A stretch of 21,516 nt of DNA, from IMG/VR virus record IMGVR_UViG_2718218434_000002, positions 1 to 21,516 of that record; one strand, written 5' to 3'. This document shows, in pieces, positions 4,266 to 12,854 of this stretch. Origin of the DNA: a virus (lineage: Duplodnaviria > Heunggongvirae > Uroviricota > Caudoviricetes). The translations under genes and the position numbers were made by a program. The notes under the pieces were generated by a model. It was not told where the DNA came from and did not search any database. It saw only the letters and a program-made list of their open reading frames with translations. Numbering within the stretch: position 1 is the stretch's first letter; each line of letters opens with the position of its first letter.

Positions 4266-4747
4266 GACAGCAGCCCTCCCACCGTTTTACTGATATCGCT
4301 TAATGCAGATGTTGCCGTGTCCTGCAGATTATTCAGCTGCGCACTGAGATCACCGAACATATCGGACAGGGATTCATCCACTCGTTTGAGCGACAGGGTG
4401 AACTCAATCCGGCGCGGCATACCGTCGCGGAAAAACTCCGTTTTAGTCTGATTCAGTCCCTCAATCACATACATGCCGTAAATCGTGCCGCTGCCTTCAA
4501 TCAGGGGCCATGCTTTTCCCTGTTCTGCCATCTGCTCCAGTGCCAGCAACGACAGCCTGCCGCCTGTAATCTCCGGCATAAGAACGCCAGAAAGCGTCAG
4601 CATGTCGTTATCCGGTCCCAGAAACTGCGTTGACGGTCGTCGGTTAACCCGGCTGTTAGCCGCATGTCGCCAGCTGCGCTGATACTGCAGTTCCTGATAC
4701 GGCACGGTGCGCAGCATAAACACGTACAATCCCAGCACCATCATCAT
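4262..4747 (-). CDS. U: Phage tail protein U (P2 gpU family), 161 aa
   Basis: 161-aa ORF between T and D with 4-bp overlaps on both sides. Order T-U-D-ogr is diagnostic of P2-like tails. Confidence 0.85.
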   Translation of the reverse strand: MMMVLGLYVFMLRTVPYQELQYQRSWRHAANSRVNRRPSTQFLGPDNDMLTLSGVLMPEITGGRLSLLALEQMAEQGKAWPLIEGSGTIYGMYVIEGLNQTKTEFFRDGMPRRIEFTLSLKRVDESLSDMFGDLSAQLNNLQDTATSALSDISKTVGGLLS

Positions 4748-6558
4748 GCGTCGTATCCCCCCTGATCGCTGTAGTTACTCCTGGCTTTTGCCTTCAGCCT
4801 GCGTTCACGTTCATCAAGCTGGCGGGCCACCTCCCGCGCAATATCCTGCGCACTTTGTCCTGACTGCGTCTGGATGATGATCTGCGTCGGTGCCTCAATC
4901 CTGTAAACGGGCGGCACAGTGGCTGCGCGACTCACAATTGCTTCTCCACCTTTCGCGGGAAGTGCCAAAGGGTGCAACGGTGGAAGCTCTGCTGGCGCGG
5001 CAGCAACGCCCATCATTCCGGCAACAACGGCAGCCAGTGCAGCTGTATTTCTCCGGCTGGTCACATTTGCCGGGCCGTTGACAATTTCAGGCCCGTTTTC
5101 ACCGACGATGCCAAACTGCCCGCGCGGAATATAGCCGCCGCTGTCATACATCCCCGCAAAGCCATATCCCCATGACGGCAAACCACCCGATGGCATCATC
5201 ACTTTACCGTCTGCATTCACCGTCGCAGGTTGCTGACGCGTCACGCTTTCCGGTAGTTTTGCCTTTGCGGCCTCTTTACTGACAATGCCGAGTTTTTCCA
5301 GCAACCAGGAAACGCCGGATTTCAGGGAGTCCAGCGGATGCATGACCATATTCAGCCCTTCCGCCAGTGCCTCCCCGAATCGTCGCCCCATTGCCGCTGC
5401 GCTCTGCAGTTCGGCAGAGGTCGACTTAACAGGCGTCAGCAGATCAGTAAACCAGCCCCACAGCGCCTGCACTTTGTCGCCAATCCACTGAAACACAGGC
5501 TTAAGTGGTTCGAATGCAGCACTGATGGGACCTGCCGCCGCTTTGAATCCTTCCACCACTCCACCGAGAAATGCGGTGATGGGTTGCCAGTATTTCCAGA
5601 CAACCAGCGCCACGCCTGCCAGTGCAGTAACCACAAGACCTATCGGACTGAGCAGAGCACCTAACAGACCAGATATGGCATACAGGGCAACGCGCAGCAT
5701 CGCCAGTGGACCAGATGCCAGTACTCGCAGCACCGTACCTGCGGCGGTCAGTCCACCGCGCAGTACCGCCAGAGGATTCATAAACATCACAGCAACAGCA
5801 CGTAAACCGGATAATCCAGACCGCAATAGTGCAACCGGCGCACCTGCTACAGTTTTCAGGACATTCCCCGTCAGTGATGCCGTGCGACGCAAAGACGACA
5901 ACGGCGCAGTAAGTAAACCCGCTGCGTTGCCCGATGAAGCAAGCCCGCGTCGCAGCAGTGCCAGTGGTGCGCCAGCCAGCCAGGACAACGCGCTGCTGGT
6001 TCGTGTTACTGCTGCCGTAACGGAAGGTAACGTTTTGATACCCAGCACAGAGAATCCCAGACGGATCACTGCCAGCGGCCCCAGCACTGCAGCCAGCGCC
6101 ACCGCTAAGGTGCCGAGGCCTACGGTAACCGCAGCCACAATAGCGGCTACTTTCATCAGTGTGCCTGTCAGTTCCGGGTTAGCTTCCACCCAGCGGCGCA
6201 ACGCCCCCGTGATGCTTTTCACCGTGTACAGAATATTCATCAGCGGCTGGCGCAGCGTTTCGCCCAGGCTGCTGAAGGTGTTCTGCGCTCCGGTTTTGAC
6301 CAGCAACCACTGAGCAGAAAGTGAGTCTTTGTTGATGTCGGATTCTTTCTGCATGGAACCGAGCGCATCATTGCCCGCTGTCAGTTTTAGCTGGCGCTGT
6401 AGTTCCGGCAGGTTGTTTGCCAGTTTCGCCGCGTCATCGCCAAACTCTTTACCAAACAACATGGTCATGGCAGACAGACGCTTGTCCTGCGGCAGTGCGT
6501 TCACCTTGAGAAGCTGGAAGAAATCTTCCATTCCTCCATGTTCAACTACCAGCGCCAC
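4744..6558 (-). pseudogene. T: Tail tape-measure protein T, N-terminally truncated fragment (about 604 codons retained)
   Basis: Long Ala/Gly/Leu-rich repetitive protein typical of tape-measure proteins, directly upstream of U. The reading frame has no real start and runs head-on into the 5' end of the terminase fragment. P2 gpT is about 815 aa from memory. Confidence 0.8.
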
Positions 6559-7875
6559 TGGTGGGAAGCCGGAAAAACCAACCGCATCCGCAACCTGCTG
6601 AAGTCACGCCAGATCGGCGCGACCTTTTACTTTGCCCGTGAAGCCCTGATTGACGCCCTGCTTACCGGACGTAACCAGATTTTCCTTTCCGCCAGTAAGG
6701 CACAGGCGCACGTCTTTAAGCAGTACATCATCGACTTCGCCAAAGAAGTGGATGTGGAACTGAAAGGCGATCCGATGGTGCTTCCTAACGGGGCCACGCT
6801 TTACTTCCTCGGCACCAATGCCCGCACGGCCCAGAGTTATCACGGCAACCTGTATCTGGATGAATATTTCTGGATACCGAAATTTCAGGAGCTACGCAAA
6901 GTGGCTTCCGGTATGGCTATTCACAAGAAATGGCGGCAGACCTATTTTTCCACACCATCCAGCCTGACCCACAGTGCTTATCCGTTCTGGTCCGGTGCGC
7001 TGTTCAACCGTGGACGCAACAAAGCCGACAAGGTGGACATTGATCTGTCCCACAGTAATCTGGCCCCCGGCCTGCTGTGCGCTGACGGGCAATACCGCCA
7101 GATAGTCACCGTGGAAGATGCGGTGCGCGGTGGCTGTAACCTGTTCGACCTTGACCAGTTGCGCATGGAATACAGCCCGGACGAATACCAGAACCTGCTG
7201 ATGTGCGAGTTTGTGGACGATCTCGCGTCCGTGTTCCCGCTCAGCGAACTACAGGCGTGCATGGTGGACAGCTGGGAAGTCTGGACCGACTTTCATGCAC
7301 TGGCGCTGCGCCCGTTTGGCTGGCGCGAAGTGTGGATCGGTTATGACCCGGCAAAAGGTACGCAGAACGGCGACAGCGCCGGATGCGTGGTGGTGGCACC
7401 GCCAGCCGTGCCGGGCGGTAAGTTCCGCATTCTTGAGCGTCACCAGTGGCGCGGGATGGACTTCCGCGCCCAGGCTGACGCCATCAAAAAACTGACTGAA
7501 CAGTACAACGTGACATACATCGGTATCGACTCAACCGGCGTCGGTCACGGGGTTTACGAGAACGTGAAAGCGTTTTTTCCTGCCGTCCGGGAGTTTGTCT
7601 ACAACCCCAACGTTAAAAATGCCCTGGTACTCAAGGCCTACGACATTATCAGTCACCGCCGTCTGGAGTTTGACGCCGGACACACCGACATAGCGCAGTC
7701 ATTTATGGCAATCCGTCGCGCCACCACCGCCAGCGGCAACCGCCCGACCTATGAAGCCAGCCGCAGCGAAGAAGCCAGCCATGCCGATCTGGCGTGGGCA
7801 ACAATGCACGCACTGTTTAACGAACCGCTGCAGGGCGAGTCCGCCAATACCAGCAATATTGTGGAGATTTTTTGA
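6538..7875 (+). pseudogene. P: Terminase large (ATPase) subunit P, N-terminally truncated fragment (about 445 codons retained)
   Basis: Contains the P-loop-like LLKSRQIGATFYF segment and overlaps the Q start (TGATG), as in the P2 P-Q operon. No promoter or upstream sequence; the frame collides with the T fragment on the opposite strand. P2 gpP is about 590 aa from memory. Confidence 0.8.
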
Positions 7876-8903
7876 TGGGAAAGAGTAAGAAGAACCGCGC
7901 TGTGTCGACGAACCAGATTCAGCACAAAAGCCAGACTTCAGCCGAAGCATTCAGCTTTGGCGATCCCGTTCCTGTTCTGGACCGCCGCGAACTGCTGGAC
8001 TATGTAGAATGCGTACAGACAGATCGCTGGTATGAGCCGCCAGTGAGTTTTGACGGACTGGCGCGAACCTTCCGCGCTGCCGTGCATCACAGTTCACCAA
8101 TTGCGGTGAAATGCAACATTCTGACCAGTACCTACATCCCTCACCCGCTTCTCAGCCAGCAGGCTTTTTCACGTTTTGTGCAGGACTATCTGGTATTTGG
8201 TAACGCTTACCTGGAGAAACGCACGAACCGGTTCGGTGAAGTTATCGCCCTTGAGCCTGCTCTGGCAAAATACACCCGACGTGGGTTAGACCTGGATACC
8301 TACTGGTTTGTGCAATACGATATGACAACCCAGCCGTATCAGTTCACGAAAGGCAGCATTTTTCATCTGATGGAACCGGACATCAACCAGGAGATCTACG
8401 GCCTGCCCGGCTATCTTTCTGCCATTCCATCCGCCCTGCTCAACGAGTCCGCCACGCTGTTCCGCCGTAAGTATTACATCAACGGCAGCCATGCAGGCTT
8501 CATCATGTACATGACCGACGCCGCGCAGAATCAGGAGGATGTGAACAACCTCCGCAACGCGATGAAAAGTGCCAAAGGTCCAGGCAACTTCCGCAACCTG
8601 TTTATGTACTCGCCTAACGGCAAAAAAGACGGGCTTCAGATCATCCCATTGTCAGAAGTCGCGGCGAAGGATGAATTTCTTAACATCAAGAACGTAAGTC
8701 GGGATGACATGATGGCGGCGCATCGTGTGCCGCCGCAGATGATGGGGATAATGCCAAACAATGTTGGGGGGTTTGGGGATGTGGAGAAGGCTAGTAAGGT
8801 TTTTGTGATAAATGAATTAATTCCTTTGCAAAAACGATTTATGGAAATAAACGCATGGCTCGGGGAGAAACTTATAGAATTTTCTCCATATGAGCTTAAC
8901 TAA
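7875..8903 (+). CDS. Q: Portal protein Q (P2 gpQ family), about 342 aa
   Basis: Directly downstream of P with a 1-nt stop/start overlap. Size matches P2 gpQ (344 aa from memory). The ORF track starts one codon earlier at TTG. Confidence 0.85.
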   Translation: MGKSKKNRAVSTNQIQHKSQTSAEAFSFGDPVPVLDRRELLDYVECVQTDRWYEPPVSFDGLARTFRAAVHHSSPIAVKCNILTSTYIPHPLLSQQAFSRFVQDYLVFGNAYLEKRTNRFGEVIALEPALAKYTRRGLDLDTYWFVQYDMTTQPYQFTKGSIFHLMEPDINQEIYGLPGYLSAIPSALLNESATLFRRKYYINGSHAGFIMYMTDAAQNQEDVNNLRNAMKSAKGPGNFRNLFMYSPNGKKDGLQIIPLSEVAAKDEFLNIKNVSRDDMMAAHRVPPQMMGIMPNNVGGFGDVEKASKVFVINELIPLQKRFMEINAWLGEKLIEFSPYELN

Positions 8904-8911
8904 AATATTAG

Positions 8912-8941
8912 TTGCCAGTACCGTATTGTTGCTACTGGCAA
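8912..8941. terminator. Hairpin between convergent Q and the 778-aa cargo gene (possible bidirectional terminator)
   Basis: Inverted repeat ttgccagta (8912-8920) / tactggcaa (8933-8941) in the 49-bp gap between two convergent stop codons. No strong T-tract. Confidence 0.35.
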
Positions 8942-8952
8942 TTGCAATAAAA

Positions 8953-11289
8953 TTACAAATATGTATTGCTATGTAGAGATGTGTTTATTCCATCTTCTAT
9001 CTCAATTTTTGACGAAGCATACTCATCATTCGCACTATCATCAATATCAAACTCATCTTGTAGATGAAGTGACTCATTTAACGGTTTATAAAACTCACCC
9101 ATCATCATTTTGTAATGGGCAGTATGCTCACTACACTCAAATATCTTCTGAAAAACAATTAAATATTTTTGCACAGACTCCGTATCTAAATTCATATAAA
9201 GATCATCACCTGCAAAATGAGAACCATCATTAATCCATGACACTAAAGATTTAAATATGATTTTTTCATCACCATAAAAATGACACTCAAGCTTCCTAAT
9301 ATCCATCCCTCCTAATATCTTAAAGTAATTCTCCAAAATCCTTCGCATTGTATTTTGTATAGTATTATTATTAATATCTGTTCTTCTCAATTCGCACCAG
9401 AGCAAATCATAAGACGTTTTTATTGGGTTTGATTCGCACTTTTCAAGATATGAGACCTTCCCTTTTTTCCTTACAATCCAAAAAGTCTCCTCTTTCATTG
9501 CTTGATTACCGGATCTTTTAGTATTAAAAGTCAACTCTTTATGAAAATAAATATTATGCGTAAGGAATATAATTTGCTTAATATTTCCTTCATCCTTACG
9601 AACATCCTCCATTAAATCTTTAATCAACGAACTTACAATAAACAGAATATCACTATCTAAACTTGAAATTGGATCATCAAATACTACAACACGATCATCT
9701 AAAACACCTGATGCATTATCACTCCCTCTAACAAGACTATAAAAATACAAAAAAGTGATAAATGTCTTTTCTCCCTCGCTAAGAGTTGTACGAGCATTAT
9801 CTCCACTATCTCTCACTATCATATAATGCTTTTTATCTTCGGAGGGTTTTAAGTAAAAATTTTTGAAGCCATAAGAATCCAGAATCTTGTTAATTTTTGT
9901 AATAGTTGGAAGAGTACTGGTTTTATTAGACTCAATTGCCTCAATAGCCGAAGCATTTAACATTAACTTCTTTTTGTCTTCCTCTAACCCAGATTTAAGT
10001 CCTTGTAACCTCCTACTAAATTTATCAGATTCGCTACGGTAAGAAGTTATTTCAGACTTTAACTCCACCTTTACGATATATGCCCATATCTGATTAGAAA
10101 GATTACTAACCTCTACCTTTCTATTACTGTGTATTTTGTTATTATTATCTATCAATAGATTTGAATCATTCAAAAAAGAAATAAAATCATCAACAACTTC
10201 ACTTAAGTCACTAAAATGAACTGATTCACTTAAAAAATTGCGTTTGTTTTTTGCCAATTCAAAATTCTTGTTTAATTCAGATAATACTATCTTAGCCTTA
10301 TCCTCAAATACTTCATAATTTATGAATGGAGATTTAATCGCCCTTATATCATCTATCGCCTGCAAGATATTATTAAGTTGATGTTCATATTGTAAAACCA
10401 ATGCATCGATTTCTCTTTTTTTTAACTCGTATGTTTTATCAAAATATGATGATAGATTATCAAATATATTATCATTTACATCCTGTTGGCAGAATGGGCA
10501 CTTGGGATTAGATTTACTGAAATATGTTAAACCTTCCTTAACCCAATCACTGTTATTGAGCATTGTAATTAAGTCTGAAACACTAACGTCTTTTTTCCCT
10601 AGAATACGCTCACTCCAAATCTCCCTACTCAAAATATCATCTATCCCATTGAAGGATGGAATTGTAATTGATACATGTGATGTCAATTCAGTAGAAAAAA
10701 CAATTTTTGCTTTCTCAATTAGCTCTGCTATTGAGCAAACTTCTGATGTGTTATTTTCATACTCAGCCAACACTCTAGCTTTAAATTTTTCACTACTATT
10801 CCTTAATCCCTCAAAAGCCTTTGAGAACACATTATCATGTTTTATTTTTTGCTTCCAACATGAATCTTTAAAAGATTTTTCATGGTCTTCGATTTGTTTA
10901 ACAACGCCTAATATATTATCACCACCATCTATTAGCTTTTCCTTTGCTATAATAGATTCTATTAGCTTATTTTTTTCTTCTTCAAGAGATATTAGTTTCT
11001 CTTCATCCTCCTTAAGATCGCTACCAAGGGTAAATACACCTTTAATTTTATCTTGACTAAAATTTCTTTCAACAAAATCTTTATTATATACGTAGCTTAT
11101 TAAAGATATATTATTTTTCCATTTAATCGGACATGTTGGATATTGTTCAGGGTCATTAATAATTTTACTTATAGTTGTTTTACCTGCACCATTAGCTCCA
11201 TATAAATAGTTAAATTTAGAAAGCCCATGTAAAAGCTGAGTAGGGCCATTATATGAGCCTACTTTGTCAATAACTACCTCTTCAATCAT
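8953..11289 (-). CDS. Stand-alone ABC-type ATPase with coiled-coil CxxC hook and C-terminal nuclease-like domain (AAA_13 / RloC-PrrC-like candidate), 778 aa
   Basis: Motifs read from the translation: Walker A GANGAGKTT (aa 31-39, nt 11173-11199), CPFC near the middle of a long charged heptad-like insert (nt about 10486-10500), ABC signature LSEGEK, Walker B VVVFDDP, H-loop LTHN, then a roughly 200-aa tail containing RRILE and a later GSH. The gene is visibly AT-rich compared with flanking phage genes. Confidence 0.6.
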   Translation of the reverse strand: MIEEVVIDKVGSYNGPTQLLHGLSKFNYLYGANGAGKTTISKIINDPEQYPTCPIKWKNNISLISYVYNKDFVERNFSQDKIKGVFTLGSDLKEDEEKLISLEEEKNKLIESIIAKEKLIDGGDNILGVVKQIEDHEKSFKDSCWKQKIKHDNVFSKAFEGLRNSSEKFKARVLAEYENNTSEVCSIAELIEKAKIVFSTELTSHVSITIPSFNGIDDILSREIWSERILGKKDVSVSDLITMLNNSDWVKEGLTYFSKSNPKCPFCQQDVNDNIFDNLSSYFDKTYELKKREIDALVLQYEHQLNNILQAIDDIRAIKSPFINYEVFEDKAKIVLSELNKNFELAKNKRNFLSESVHFSDLSEVVDDFISFLNDSNLLIDNNNKIHSNRKVEVSNLSNQIWAYIVKVELKSEITSYRSESDKFSRRLQGLKSGLEEDKKKLMLNASAIEAIESNKTSTLPTITKINKILDSYGFKNFYLKPSEDKKHYMIVRDSGDNARTTLSEGEKTFITFLYFYSLVRGSDNASGVLDDRVVVFDDPISSLDSDILFIVSSLIKDLMEDVRKDEGNIKQIIFLTHNIYFHKELTFNTKRSGNQAMKEETFWIVRKKGKVSYLEKCESNPIKTSYDLLWCELRRTDINNNTIQNTMRRILENYFKILGGMDIRKLECHFYGDEKIIFKSLVSWINDGSHFAGDDLYMNLDTESVQKYLIVFQKIFECSEHTAHYKMMMGEFYKPLNESLHLQDEFDIDDSANDEYASSKIEIEDGINTSLHSNTYL

Positions 11290-11422
11290 CCTCTAATCCT
11301 CAAAAAACAGATTAATCCTATCAAATCAATGATAATAGAAGACATTACTTACCTAATTACAAGGTGATCATTTATACAGCTGTGAATAAATCAGGCTAAT
11401 CATCTATTTGTCATAACGCGCG

Positions 11423-11441
11423 CTCGTATCCCCGCCACGCC
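11423..11441 (-). other. cos-like cohesive-end sequence (P2/186 type)
   Basis: The minus strand reads GGCGTGGCGGGGATACGAG. The first 13 nt match the 186 cohesive end (GGCGTGGCGGGGAAAGCAT) as recalled. Orientation and position (Q side to the left, A side to the right) fit the P2 left end. Confidence 0.45.
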
Positions 11442-11712
11442 TGCCCGCTTTATATAGTGGTTTTCATGCACCTGCATGACATAAGCAAAAGCCCGCCATA
11501 CCTAGCAGGCCCCAACTAGAGCGATCCTTAAACGATCATGCGGATTCATGCAGTATAGACATGCAGTAGTTACGCCAAACCGTGTAGCGAGGCCACCTGC
11601 TAAAAATGTTCACGGAGTAACATTTGATCTCCACTGCAAAAAATGAAACTTTCGCTTTCACCAAATATAACAAGAGGTAATCTTTGGTGTTTTACACAGC
11701 AAACGGTGAGCC

Positions 11713-12294
11713 ATGAAAGTCAACATAAAACAGATTGTTGGAAATTGGGAATTAGGTCTTGCGATGGATAAACACAGCATCCGCAGCATTCCCATTGGTT
11801 ACGATGAGTGGGGACATATGCGGTTTGAGACGGAGCGTACTGAGGTAGGCGAATCTCTTTTCCAGCTTAAATACCGTGACGATTGGTCACAAGTTAAGCC
11901 TTTAGCCCAATGCCTAGCAGAGCATGCCTTTCCTCATTTCAGCAATGTCGGGTTTATCGTTCCAATGGCTGCATCTAATCAGCGTGCACGCCAGCCAGTG
12001 ACCGAAATAGCTCAGGAACTAGCCAAACTAGTTGGCAAACCATGCTTCGATGACCTCTTGTTGAAAGCCCCCGGCGGGGCATCGCTAAAGAACCTGAATA
12101 CAAAAGAAGAGAAAATCACGGCGCTGGGTAATTCGTTCTCTGTTAATGACAGTATTGAGAATAATGGCAACTGGAATGTCCTTATCATTGACGACCTCTA
12201 CCATACAGGCGCATCTATGGAGGCTGCTTGTGCTGTGCTAAACGATTATACTAAGGTTAGAAGCATTTATGTTGCAGCTTTGACTTGGAGATAG
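11713..12294 (+). CDS. Type I phosphoribosyltransferase-domain protein (PRTase), 193 aa
   Basis: PRPP-binding signature VLIIDDLYHTGASM (nt about 12178-12219) near the C-terminus. ATG preceded by GGTGAG. Its stop lies 2 nt before the next gene's ATG. Confidence 0.8.
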   Translation: MKVNIKQIVGNWELGLAMDKHSIRSIPIGYDEWGHMRFETERTEVGESLFQLKYRDDWSQVKPLAQCLAEHAFPHFSNVGFIVPMAASNQRARQPVTEIAQELAKLVGKPCFDDLLLKAPGGASLKNLNTKEEKITALGNSFSVNDSIENNGNWNVLIIDDLYHTGASMEAACAVLNDYTKVRSIYVAALTWR

Positions 12295-12296
12295 TG

Positions 12297-12854
12297 ATGA
12301 CTACGGTATTTGTTGCTGGTTCAATAACCATCAAAAACCTTGACACACTCATCGTGGATCGTCTGAAAAAAATTGTTAACTCGCGTTTTCGTATTGTAGT
12401 TGGTGATGCCAATGGTGTTGATTCATCTGTTCAACGCGTATTGCTAGAACTTGGATGTGAAAAAGCCACAGTATTCAGTAGCTCAGAAAAACCGCGCAAT
12501 AATCTTGGCTCATGGCCTGTACATGTAGTAAGTACTAGCCATGCAGCCGGCACTCGCGCGTTTTTCACTGCGAAAGATCTCAAAATGGCAGAAGAAGCCG
12601 ATTATGGATTAATGGTTTGGGATACGAAGAGCACGGGTACTCTGAGTAACGTGATTGAGCTTCTTAAACGTAAAAAATACTCTGTCGTTTTTGTTAATAA
12701 ATACAAAAAGTTCTTTATTATCAAATCTCCAGAGCACCTTGACGCTTTGATTAACTGCATGTCACCAGCCTCTTTGGAAAAAGCTGATGAAAAGATCAGA
12801 TTGCGCGAAAAAATCAACCAACTAAAAAACGAGCAAATCCAGATGTTTATGTGA
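12297..12854 (+). CDS. DprA/Smf-like (SLOG superfamily) Rossmann-fold protein, about 185 aa
   Basis: RIVVGDANGVDSSVQR resembles the DprA VSGLARGIDxxAH motif, and a later KSTGTLSNVIELLKRKK resembles the DprA SGS(L) region. ATG at 12297 with GGAG 7 nt upstream, so it is co-transcribed with the PRTase. The ORF track starts 4 codons earlier at TTG. Confidence 0.65.
   Translation: MTTVFVAGSITIKNLDTLIVDRLKKIVNSRFRIVVGDANGVDSSVQRVLLELGCEKATVFSSSEKPRNNLGSWPVHVVSTSHAAGTRAFFTAKDLKMAEEADYGLMVWDTKSTGTLSNVIELLKRKKYSVVFVNKYKKFFIIKSPEHLDALINCMSPASLEKADEKIRLREKINQLKNEQIQMFM

Follow-up and report, generated by a model that had tools for sequence, protein, structure and literature searches.

A stand-alone gene of the RloC family as probable defence cargo next to the cos-like site of a P2/186-like Escherichia coli prophage

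The 21,516-nucleotide stretch of viral DNA analysed here (IMG/VR virus record IMGVR_UViG_2718218434_000002, hereafter the window) contains, at 8953..11289 on the minus strand, a 778-aa gene with an ATG start. With a probability that we put at about 0.72, this stand-alone gene belongs to the RloC family and is accessory cargo for defence, lodged in the gpA-gpQ hotspot close to the cos of a P2/186-like prophage. Its product is WP_061357951.1 of E. coli D2, a protein named 'AAA family ATPase' in RefSeq. The gene is documented by its intact reading frame and translation, by profile matches and by a pN/pS of 0.13 against the allele of E. coli D7. A chance open reading frame is excluded for 8953-11289 by the match to Pfam AAA_13, by invariant motifs and by this pN/pS value. 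The gene is under purifying selection, and all 16 head-to-body amino-acid changes relative to D7 lie within aa 103-446, the head and the C-terminal domain being free of substitutions.

Considering profiles of whole domains, the protein matches AAA_13 (PF13166) with E 1.6e-163 over aa 10-718, that is model positions 2-713 of 713, and with a score of 546.5 bits for a gathering cut-off of 36. The best PADLOC model, PDLC04890 of PDC-S06, extends over aa 1-734 (E 8e-266), and PDC-S06 evidently overlaps with RloC. With the whole protein as query, the PADLOC PrrC model gives a match at aa 458-704 (E 4.3e-11), and no NCBIfam model gives one. The first-pass annotation, which had read an RloC-type layout from the letters of the sequence, had named a search against AAA_13 and RloC/PrrC profiles as its check, and these matches bear it out.

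RloC orthologues have been recognised (Davidov & Kaufmann, PMC2610378) by ABC ATPase motifs, a CXXC motif and the pattern R-X3-E-X36-52-(S)H, published as Arg-X3-Glu-X36-52-His with the remark that 'Ser often precedes His'. All three features are present in the 778-aa protein, and every motif lies where the first-pass annotation had placed it. Conservation was scored over 61 homologues with 41-66% identity to the protein, and K37, C264, C267, S504, D538, D539, H578, R649, E653, S690 and H691 are each kept in 61/61 of them. The ABC ATPase motifs occupy aa 31-38, 503-508, 534-545 and 576-579, all encoded on the minus strand. They comprise a Walker A or P-loop GANGAGKT (aa 31-38, 11176..11199; G31, G36, K37 and T38 invariant), an ABC signature LSEGEK (aa 503-508, 9766..9783; L503 to E507 invariant), a Walker B VVVFDDP (aa 534-540, 9670..9690; D538 and D539 invariant) followed by the D-loop SSLD, and an H-loop or switch LTHN (aa 576-579, 9553..9564; T577, H578 and N579 invariant). 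ATP turnover may be slow because an Asp, and not the usual catalytic Glu, follows the Walker B Asp.

Between Walker A and the signature, the head is split by a largely alpha-helical, coiled-coil-like insert with a central CXXC. It was delimited from the AF2 secondary structure at about aa 93-455 (9925..11013, minus strand), with helices 93-121 through 411-455 and pLDDT mostly 70-94. An insert of about 480 residues had been announced: the insert exists, but 480 is the motif-to-motif distance, and the helical insert of the AF2 model has about 365 aa. The CPFC motif (aa 264-267, 10489..10500, minus strand; C264, P265 and C267 invariant) lies near the midpoint of the insert, as noted at first reading, with AF2 helices on both sides (aa 93-259 and 273-455). 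It is a putative zinc hook that presumably binds zinc; C-P-F-C-Q is also present in the Shewanella RloC orthologue discussed below, and the equivalent in the RloC of G. kaustophilus (GkaRloC) is CAFC.

The C-terminal region includes a putative anticodon-nuclease domain (aa 588-739, 9073..9528, minus strand), defined from the AF2 model and a domain profile as a beta-hairpin plus helical bundle. It carries the invariant R649-R-I-L-E653 (9331..9345, minus strand), the Arg-X3-Glu portion of the triad seen in RloC/PrrC, and the invariant S690-H691 (9217..9222, minus strand), whose His, 37 residues past E653 and preceded by Ser, is the candidate catalytic one. The RRILE and later His picked out in the first-pass annotation thus form an R649-X3-E653-X37-S690-H691 pattern, found in 61/61 homologues, whose spacing fits the RloC motif. 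The protein ends in an acidic tail (aa 740-778, 8956..9072, minus strand) predicted to be disordered (pLDDT <40); aa 733-778 contain 11 D/E versus 2 K/R. Relatives at least 49% identical have an S-A-N-D motif in this tail in common, and in several close relatives the C-terminus is an acidic -PF tip resembling that of SSB.

The assignment to RloC is further supported by orthology. A Shewanella sp. ANA-3 plasmid protein of 746 aa is 36% identical to the 778-aa protein (E 5e-144, residues 1-732). This protein is entry #60 of the RloC orthologue Table S1 of Davidov & Kaufmann 2008 and, as Q369M3_9GAMM, was aligned with GkaRloC in Fig. S1 of the same authors (PMC2610378), who found that mutation of each triad residue of GkaRloC abolishes activity. 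The relation to the characterised GkaRloC is drawn via this Shewanella intermediate, and our scan of genome contigs returned no Geobacillus or Acinetobacter baylyi entry. Homologues at 42-45% identity bear the JGI name 'wobble nucleotide-excising tRNase', and a Streptococcus prophage homologue (26% identical) is annotated 'translation-disabling ACNase'.

The host element is a decayed E. coli prophage of the P2 type, in which the capsid and tail genes are lost and the RloC-like gene is intact. As proposed at first reading, the gene lies between the portal gene Q, which stops at 8903, and a cos-like site; its own stop codon is at 8953-8955. The cos-like cohesive-end sequence, GGCGTGGCGGGGATACGAG, was identified by sequence reading as 186 type; it occupies 11441-11423 (minus strand), and 134 bp separate it from the ATG downstream. 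In three E. coli loci its distance from the RloC-like gene is the same. A block of about 150 bp (11417-11568) that encloses it is conserved among 78 P2-like phage records, and with up to 3 mismatches allowed the P2 cos sequence, GGCGAGGCGGGGAAAGCAC, was unmatched. The upstream region (11290..11422, minus strand) has GAGGA as ribosome binding site, at 8 nt from the ATG, and only weak promoter-like hexamers, and a scan for a consensus sigma-70 promoter from cos to the ATG gave no site. A hairpin at 8912..8941, with a stem of 9-12 bp, separates the convergent Q and RloC-like genes and is a candidate bidirectional terminator (-16.6 and -16.4 kcal/mol, z -3.9 and -3.5, on the two strands).

The GC content of the gene is 0.306 versus 0.504 for Q, 0.567 for P and 0.527 for A. 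The composition is thus foreign relative to the flanks (about 0.5-0.57 GC), in agreement with the strong AT-richness reported earlier. The Q-cos interval had been described as a short spacer in P2, which is true of P2 itself, but other cargo is found there in Fels-2 and Escherichia phage 500465-1, so that this slot is not unique to the RloC-like gene. The literature already contains both the kind of gene and its location. An RloC of E. coli APEC O1, with flanks described as 'phage replication initiation, capsid', appears in the 2008 table (PMC2610378); WP_061357951 itself is placed in the P2 gpA-gpQ hotspot in Table S5A of Rousset et al. 2022; and system #5 'AAA_13' is annotated 'RloC-like' in their Table S5B. 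The RloC-like gene is ordinary, already catalogued prophage cargo, probably for defence.

Among 5426 complete E. coli genomes, 21-23 carry the RloC-like gene and about 1250 the flanking P2 backbone; a gene so rare relative to this backbone is dispensable for the phage. It is the sole cargo in TUM12355; in D7 its neighbour is a KAP NTPase, and in D2 a PRTase pair. No conserved partner gene was found among 80 homologous loci from many phyla. The commonest neighbour is a type I HsdS, upstream in 8/80 of these loci, which echoes the R-M linkage reported for RloC (8/72, PMC2610378). The window and the three E. coli contexts contain no R-M (hsd) genes, no Mre11/SbcD-type phosphoesterase partner was seen in any context inspected, and no LmuA- or LmuC-like neighbours were found. 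The RloC-like gene therefore needs no partner, occurring alone or beside unrelated cargo. Composition and the three different E. coli neighbourhoods likewise uphold the earlier view of a horizontally acquired gene without partner.

Assignments to Lamassu, PARIS, Septu or Old were rejected: similarity is weak and restricted to the head domain, and the effector partner is absent. The LmuB model gives a weak match (E 1.8e-13, aa 79-587), and Rad50/SbcC has a similar head fold with its cognate Mre11/SbcD nuclease partner absent here.

The neighbourhoods also bear on how such a nuclease would be controlled. The protein could work in the manner of PrrC, as an anticodon nuclease silenced in trans by a host type I R-M system and freed by a phage anti-restriction protein, with no internal DNA-end or zinc-hook switch. 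The PrrC model match over aa 458-704 (E 4.3e-11) fits this, as does the type I hsdS, or hsdS plus hsdM, found immediately upstream at about 10% of the homologous loci, and the RloC authors themselves left an R-M protein acting in trans possible (PMC3458546). However, the other 90% of loci have no R-M neighbour, the window and the three E. coli contexts lack R-M genes altogether, and the gene travels as single cargo. The protein itself is also built differently: the coiled-coil/CxxC insert is absent from PrrC, the catalytic His of E. coli PrrC is residue 356 whereas the protein described here has 778 aa, and its Walker A, GKTT, is not followed by the Arg described for PrrC. We consequently regard control of this kind as unlikely.

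The predicted structure informs mainly on the head. The AF2 model of the whole protein (pLDDT 80.5) has as best Foldseek PDB matches the Rad50 heads 7zr1 and 5da9 (E about 1e-7), followed by SMC, LmuB, AriA and PtuA, and its head fold resembles that of Rad50. The C-terminal domain modelled by itself (pLDDT 79.9) gave no fold match among solved structures, HEPN bundle included, and a PDB sequence search with the protein returned nothing relevant, the sole match being an unrelated protein at E 0.44. No RloC or PrrC structure was found in the PDB, and the absence of a fold match is therefore expected. A profile of the C-terminal domain recovers 1270 cluster representatives; its top matches are mostly proteins of 720-780 aa with the domain at about aa 590-740, and the shorter ones carry it C-terminally too. 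When the domain was the sole query, PADLOC and Pfam at lax thresholds yielded only PDC-S06 and the tail of AAA_13, with no PrrC or HEPN model; in particular the PrrC model gave no match to aa 588-745 at E<=1. The canonical HEPN Rx4-6H is absent, the residues being S-W-I-N-D-G-S before H691 and E-C-S-E-H-T-A before H725, with no Arg at -5 to -7. PrrC/RloC were placed among divergent HEPN by Anantharaman et al. 2013.

These results leave some room for an effector of the PDC-S06/AAA_13 kind with a C-terminal domain other than an RNase. In such a protein, the head would sense DNA, the tail would be a regulatory, oligomerisation or DNA/protein-binding module, and toxicity or defence would arise for example from DNA binding or clamping, ATP depletion or recruitment of a host nuclease. 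The lack of detectable similarity to solved RNase or HEPN folds, of a PrrC/HEPN profile match for the domain alone and of Rx4-6H would agree with it, as would the status of PDC-S06, only a candidate in PADLOC and merely predicted according to one paper that discusses it. On the other hand, homologues from different phyla all keep the R-X3-E-X37-S-H pattern, with the spacing by which RloC/PrrC nucleases are defined, the orthology is full-length to proteins that the discoverers of RloC grouped with a proven tRNase, and, with no RloC/PrrC structure in the PDB, the missing fold match carries little surprise. A non-RNase tail appears quite unlikely to us. It is hardly credible that the gene is not for defence at all, as a Rad50/SbcC-like ATPase for repair or maintenance, or an AAA_13 protein of conjugation type, aiding prophage replication or packaging near cos: the head fold is most like Rad50, the gene adjoins cos and the Pfam description of AAA_13 mentions conjugative-transfer proteins, but there is no Mre11/SbcD-type partner, the gene is in 21-23 of 5426 E. 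coli genomes against about 1250 with the P2 backbone, it is intact in a prophage lacking capsid and tail genes, and the same slot houses validated defence systems in other P2-like phages.

For the RloC-family reading that we favour, a mechanism can be proposed by analogy with GkaRloC (Klaiman et al. 2012, PMC3458546). The protein has a Rad50-like ABC head split by the helical insert of about 365 aa, with the Cys-Pro-Phe-Cys hook mid-insert, and the last 150 or so structured residues hold the triad pattern, Arg-X3-Glu...Ser-His, that the anticodon nucleases RloC and PrrC share. At rest, the nuclease would be silenced by the zinc-hook/coiled-coil region. Binding of DNA, especially of its ends, would switch on ATP hydrolysis; such ends could come from phage infection, phage nucleases or double-strand breaks. 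ATP hydrolysis would in turn release the C-terminal RNase, which would cleave tRNA anticodon loops and remove the wobble nucleotide, leaving phage tRNA-repair enzymes unable to reverse the damage. Translation would then halt and the infection abort, so that the lysogen population and the prophage would be protected. For the present protein we infer from this analogy that it binds zinc, has a DNA-dependent ATPase, cuts tRNA at the site named, responds to such a trigger in vivo and protects against phage. Published support for in vivo phage blocking by RloC is thin, its natural trigger and anti-phage phenotype never having been firmly shown, and RloC in Acinetobacter was not activated by double-strand breaks alone according to its authors in 2012 (PMC3458546).

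A very doubtful extension is that the cos-adjacent RloC subfamily is tuned to phage DNA ends (linear termini, or the terminase-cut cos of competing P2/P4-type elements) and not to generic breaks, with the clade-specific acidic tail acting as an autoinhibitory mimic of DNA or of the SSB tip. If true, this sensing of phage ends would supply the missing natural trigger of RloC and would explain the clustering of defence cargo at cos in both P2 and P4.

In practice, the RefSeq 'AAA family ATPase' can be re-annotated as an RloC-type anticodon nuclease (predicted). The E. coli allele in its native prophage, with lysogen D7 as an intact one and TUM12355 as a single-cargo remnant, offers a convenient model for the trigger and the anti-phage role of RloC. 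A structure of the C-terminal domain would be informative because the predicted domain is unlike any PDB entry and the RloC/PrrC nuclease domains are unsolved. Specialists are unlikely to be surprised, RloC in P2-like prophages having been tabulated in 2008 and the same protein listed in the 2022 hotspot catalogue.

Compared with known systems, the protein shares its layout with GkaRloC. Both are single polypeptides of about 750-800 aa with an ABC head split by a coiled-coil insert and a central CxxC, the triad and hook being R692/E696/H737 and C291 in GkaRloC and R649/E653/H691 and C264/C267 here. They differ in the hook (CAFC in GkaRloC, CPFC here) and in the extra acidic C-terminal tail of 39 aa. 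Like RloC, the present gene is single cargo on mobile elements, and linkage to type I R-M is rare. The RloC of E. coli APEC O1, Rousset system #5 and this gene are all of RloC-type AAA_13 and belong to the gpA-gpQ hotspot of E. coli P2-like prophages; the hook motif DWVK.G...CPFCQ is common to the protein and system #5, although identity with the printed system #5 sequence is 25% and limited to the N-terminal 400 aa. The Enterobacter phage ENT4 homologue (25% identical, 742 aa) is on the gpA side of cos, whereas the present gene is on the Q side. PDC-S06 is a single-gene bioinformatic candidate label that adds no mechanism.

PrrC of the E. coli prr locus shares with the protein the ABC-type NTPase motifs and the Arg-Glu-His triad pattern, and the same outcome, abortive infection via tRNA anticodon-loop cleavage, is proposed for both. 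PrrC is, however, compact (triad R320/E324/H356) and has no coiled-coil/zinc-hook insert. Its gene always lies within a type Ic hsd locus, which keeps it silent, whereas hsd genes are absent around the present gene. PrrC nicks tRNA without excision of the wobble base, a restriction that, by analogy with GkaRloC, would not apply here.

Finally, Rad50/SbcC, LmuB, AriA and PtuA share the predicted head fold (Foldseek E 1e-7 to 1e-3), and together with P2 Old they have in common with the protein an ABC ATPase sensor coupled to a nuclease effector, a putative one in the present case. In these systems the effector is TOPRIM, HNH or Cap4, separate or fused, or an Mre11 partner is used; here the RloC triad lies in a helical domain fused at the C-terminus, the putative effector. 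Old and PARIS are likewise cargo of P2/P4 hotspots and target tRNA.

Every motif that the first-pass annotation had proposed for the RloC-like gene (window 8953-11289, minus strand; RefSeq WP_061357951.1, 'AAA family ATPase') was found in place in its 778-aa ORF. From the N- to the C-terminus, these are a Walker A (GANGAGKT, aa 31-38), a CPFC pair (aa 264-267), an ABC signature (LSEGEK, aa 503-508), a Walker B (VVVFDDP, aa 534-540), an H-loop (LTHN, aa 576-579), the RRILE sequence (aa 649-653) and a Ser-His pair (S690-H691). In an alignment of 61 homologues, residues K37, C264, C267, S504, D538, D539, H578, R649, E653, S690 and H691 are invariant. The suggested insert of 480 aa holds as a distance from motif to motif, but not as the helical region that splits the ABC head, which the AF2 model places at about aa 93-455. 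The gene is indeed AT-rich, with a GC fraction of 0.306 versus 0.50-0.57 in the portal gene Q, P and the replication gene A. Within the Walker B (window 9670-9690), D538 is followed by D539 and not by the usual catalytic Glu of ABC ATPases; the invariance of D539 (61/61 homologues) suggests that the family may possess a slow, switch-like ATPase.

We assign WP_061357951.1 to the RloC family with a probability of about 0.9, a reading on which profiles, triad pattern and a link to a published orthologue all agree. The AAA_13 or PrrC match that had been sought was obtained with both models: Pfam AAA_13 covers the protein end to end (E 1.6e-163) and PADLOC's model for PrrC covers aa 458-704 (E 4.3e-11), alongside the PADLOC candidate system PDC-S06 (E 8e-266). 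A large protein database search retrieved 682 homologues, the best 120 of which share 42-67% identity, are mostly 730-780 aa long and include several labelled 'wobble nucleotide-excising tRNase' by JGI; invariance was scored on 61 of these homologues. Every triad residue is essential in the characterised Geobacillus kaustophilus enzyme, GkaRloC (PMC2610378). With the pattern R649-X3-E653-X37-S690-H691, the protein has all three RloC features, namely ABC ATPase motifs, CXXC and Arg-X3-Glu-X36-52-(Ser)His (PMC2610378). A tblastn search of plasmids also identified a 746-aa homologue in Shewanella sp. ANA-3, adjoining an IS200/IS605 transposase. This gene agrees with entry #60 of the RloC orthologue table, and its protein sequence is that of the Q369M3_9GAMM row in the published alignment with GkaRloC (PMC2610378). 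Residues 1-732 of the window's protein are 36% identical to it (E 5e-144), with the common blocks CPFCQQ, LSEGE, DDPISSLDS, LTHN, TIQNTMRRI(L/I)ENYFKILG, WINDGSH and HY.MMMGE.

The window is a 100% match to the chromosome of E. coli strain D2, a dog isolate (NZ_CP010137.1); the P2/186-like prophage that it contains lies between ybjL and rcdA. One flank carries ogr, D, U and a tape-measure gene lacking its N-terminus (4744-6558, minus strand), which directly abuts an N-terminally truncated terminase gene P (6538-7875, plus strand), both being pseudogenes in RefSeq. The junction implies that the capsid and lysis genes have been lost along with most tail genes, and the prophage is therefore a remnant. 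The hotspot follows, with Q and then the RloC-like gene; on the far side lie a small PRTase-like pair, a DinI-like gene, A and a Dam methylase gene, and then the CII/Fil/CI regulators and the integrase. The hotspot cargo is still intact despite these losses.

Q, which ends at 8903, and the RloC-like gene are convergent, with a stable hairpin between them (8912-8941, z about -3.7 on either strand). A 186-type cohesive-end sequence, GGCGTGGCGGGGATACGAG (11441-11423, minus strand), lies 134 bp upstream of the RloC-like ATG, within a block of about 150 bp (11417-11568) that is conserved across 78 records of P2-like phages. A sequence search of the window found no exact copy of the P2 cos. The gene therefore sits between Q and cos, as had been proposed, and its start is 141 bp from the GGCGTGGCGGGG motif in the E. 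coli strains D2, D7 and TUM12355 alike. The block is asymmetric, conservation on the Q side ending about 6 bp past the cohesive-end sequence. The Q-cos interval encodes a 565-aa hypothetical protein in Fels-2 (L086 1734-3431) and a TIR protein in Escherichia phage 500465-1 (L087 2125-3427), whereas an RloC-like homologue of Enterobacter phage ENT4 (L004 4670-7226; 742 aa, 25% identity) lies on the gpA side of cos and not on the Q side. Cargo therefore enters both sides of cos, and the Q-side slot is part of a known hotspot, not a peculiarity.

Across cos, a two-gene module (11713-12854, plus strand) encodes a 193-aa ComF/PRTase-like protein (PADLOC ShosT E 1.3e-8, Pfam Pribosyltran just E 0.01) and, overlapping it, a 189-aa protein whose sole DprA match is sub-threshold (E 0.21). 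The module appears to be distantly related to the validated DprA-PRTase / ShosTA systems; Table S5A of Rousset et al. 2022 records its two genes (WP_024219116 + WP_024219117) as 'hypothetical + hypothetical', next to a variety of other systems. The DinI-like gene (Pfam E 1.3e-22) and the small conserved ORF WP_001154434 (12944-13376, minus strand, gpA-side flank) are present in most hotspot arrangements of that table and therefore behave as backbone, not cargo.

Among 5426 complete E. coli genomes, 21-23 carry the RloC-like gene, always on the chromosome, and about 1250 match the flanking P2 backbone. It is the sole cargo between Q and DinI in TUM12355, is joined by a KAP-family NTPase across cos in D7, whose prophage is apparently intact, and accompanies the PRTase pair in D2. 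These three settings, together with the lack of any conserved neighbour in 80 homologous loci from many bacterial phyla and an archaeon, bear out the claim that it has no partner gene. The D2 and D7 alleles give a pN/pS of 0.13, and 16 of their 17 amino-acid changes fall in the helical insert, the other in the tail; the gene is thus stand-alone cargo under selection. The commonest neighbours in the 80 loci, immediately upstream, are type I HsdS (8/80) and HsdM (5/80), a low R-M linkage like that published for RloC (8/72, PMC2610378). Silencing in the manner of PrrC, by an R-M enzyme acting in trans, is less well supported than self-contained silencing. The hsdM/hsdS arrangements, in about 10% of loci, belong to other phyla (e.g. 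L023 2479-6004, L006 1762-5943). DUF2130, SNF2 helicase, N6/N4 methylase and integrase genes also recur, and such neighbourhoods look like defence islands.

In the full-length AF2 model (mean pLDDT 80.5), the head deserves its description as Rad50-like: the nearest PDB structures are the Rad50 heads 7zr1 and 5da9 (E about 1e-7), followed by SMC heads, Lamassu LmuB, PARIS AriA and retron/Septu PtuA. The RloC/PrrC nuclease has been classed as a divergent HEPN domain (PMC3710099). Structure comparison gave no fold match for the C-terminal domain and did not confirm this class, which is unsurprising, since neither the PDB nor the papers searched contain a structure of RloC or PrrC. Searching 1.84 billion proteins with a profile of this domain gave 1270 cluster representatives. 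The top matches mostly span 720-780 aa and carry the domain at about aa 590-740; in the shorter ones it is likewise C-terminal. Judging from these proteins, it is a fixed part of the RloC-like architecture. A non-nuclease role for the tail end of the protein is less well supported than an anticodon nuclease. The last residues (aa 740-778, window 8956-9072) form an acidic tail, predicted to be disordered, confined to a clade with at least 49% identity and bearing a conserved S-A-N-D motif. Several close relatives (P0002, P0004, P0007, P0008 and P0011) terminate in -PF after an acidic stretch, recalling the SSB C-terminal tip; the window's protein ends in ...SNTYL, not -PF.

What the analysis shows for this protein is its architecture and conservation, its homology and head fold, and its autonomy and selection; its mode of action may be proposed by analogy with GkaRloC (PMC3458546). 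The nuclease would be silenced by the putative zinc hook and coiled coil, and the ATPase would be stimulated by DNA, above all by DNA ends. ATP hydrolysis would then unleash the anticodon nuclease, whose excision of the wobble nucleotide would leave a lesion beyond phage tRNA repair, so that translation would halt and the infection abort. We consider it fairly probable that this full mechanism applies here. A non-defence role is less well supported, and it is very unlikely that a cos-adjacent RloC subfamily with an acidic tail specifically senses phage genome ends.

An RloC in a P2-like prophage of E. coli had been reported before. The 2008 table has the E. coli APEC O1 RloC as its entry #51, with the flanks 'phage replication initiation, capsid' (PMC2610378), and Anantharaman et al. 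described ABC-HEPN proteins on prophages with an APEC O1 protein as prototype (PMC3710099). It was Rousset et al. 2022 who defined the cos-proximal gpA-gpQ hotspot in P2-like phages; their Table S5A lists WP_061357951 itself as 'AAA_13', and their Table S5B annotates AAA_13 system #5 (420 occurrences) as 'RloC-like'. The window's allele shares only 25% identity with the printed system #5 sequence. Family and hotspot are both known already, and the gene adds a new, uncharacterised member.
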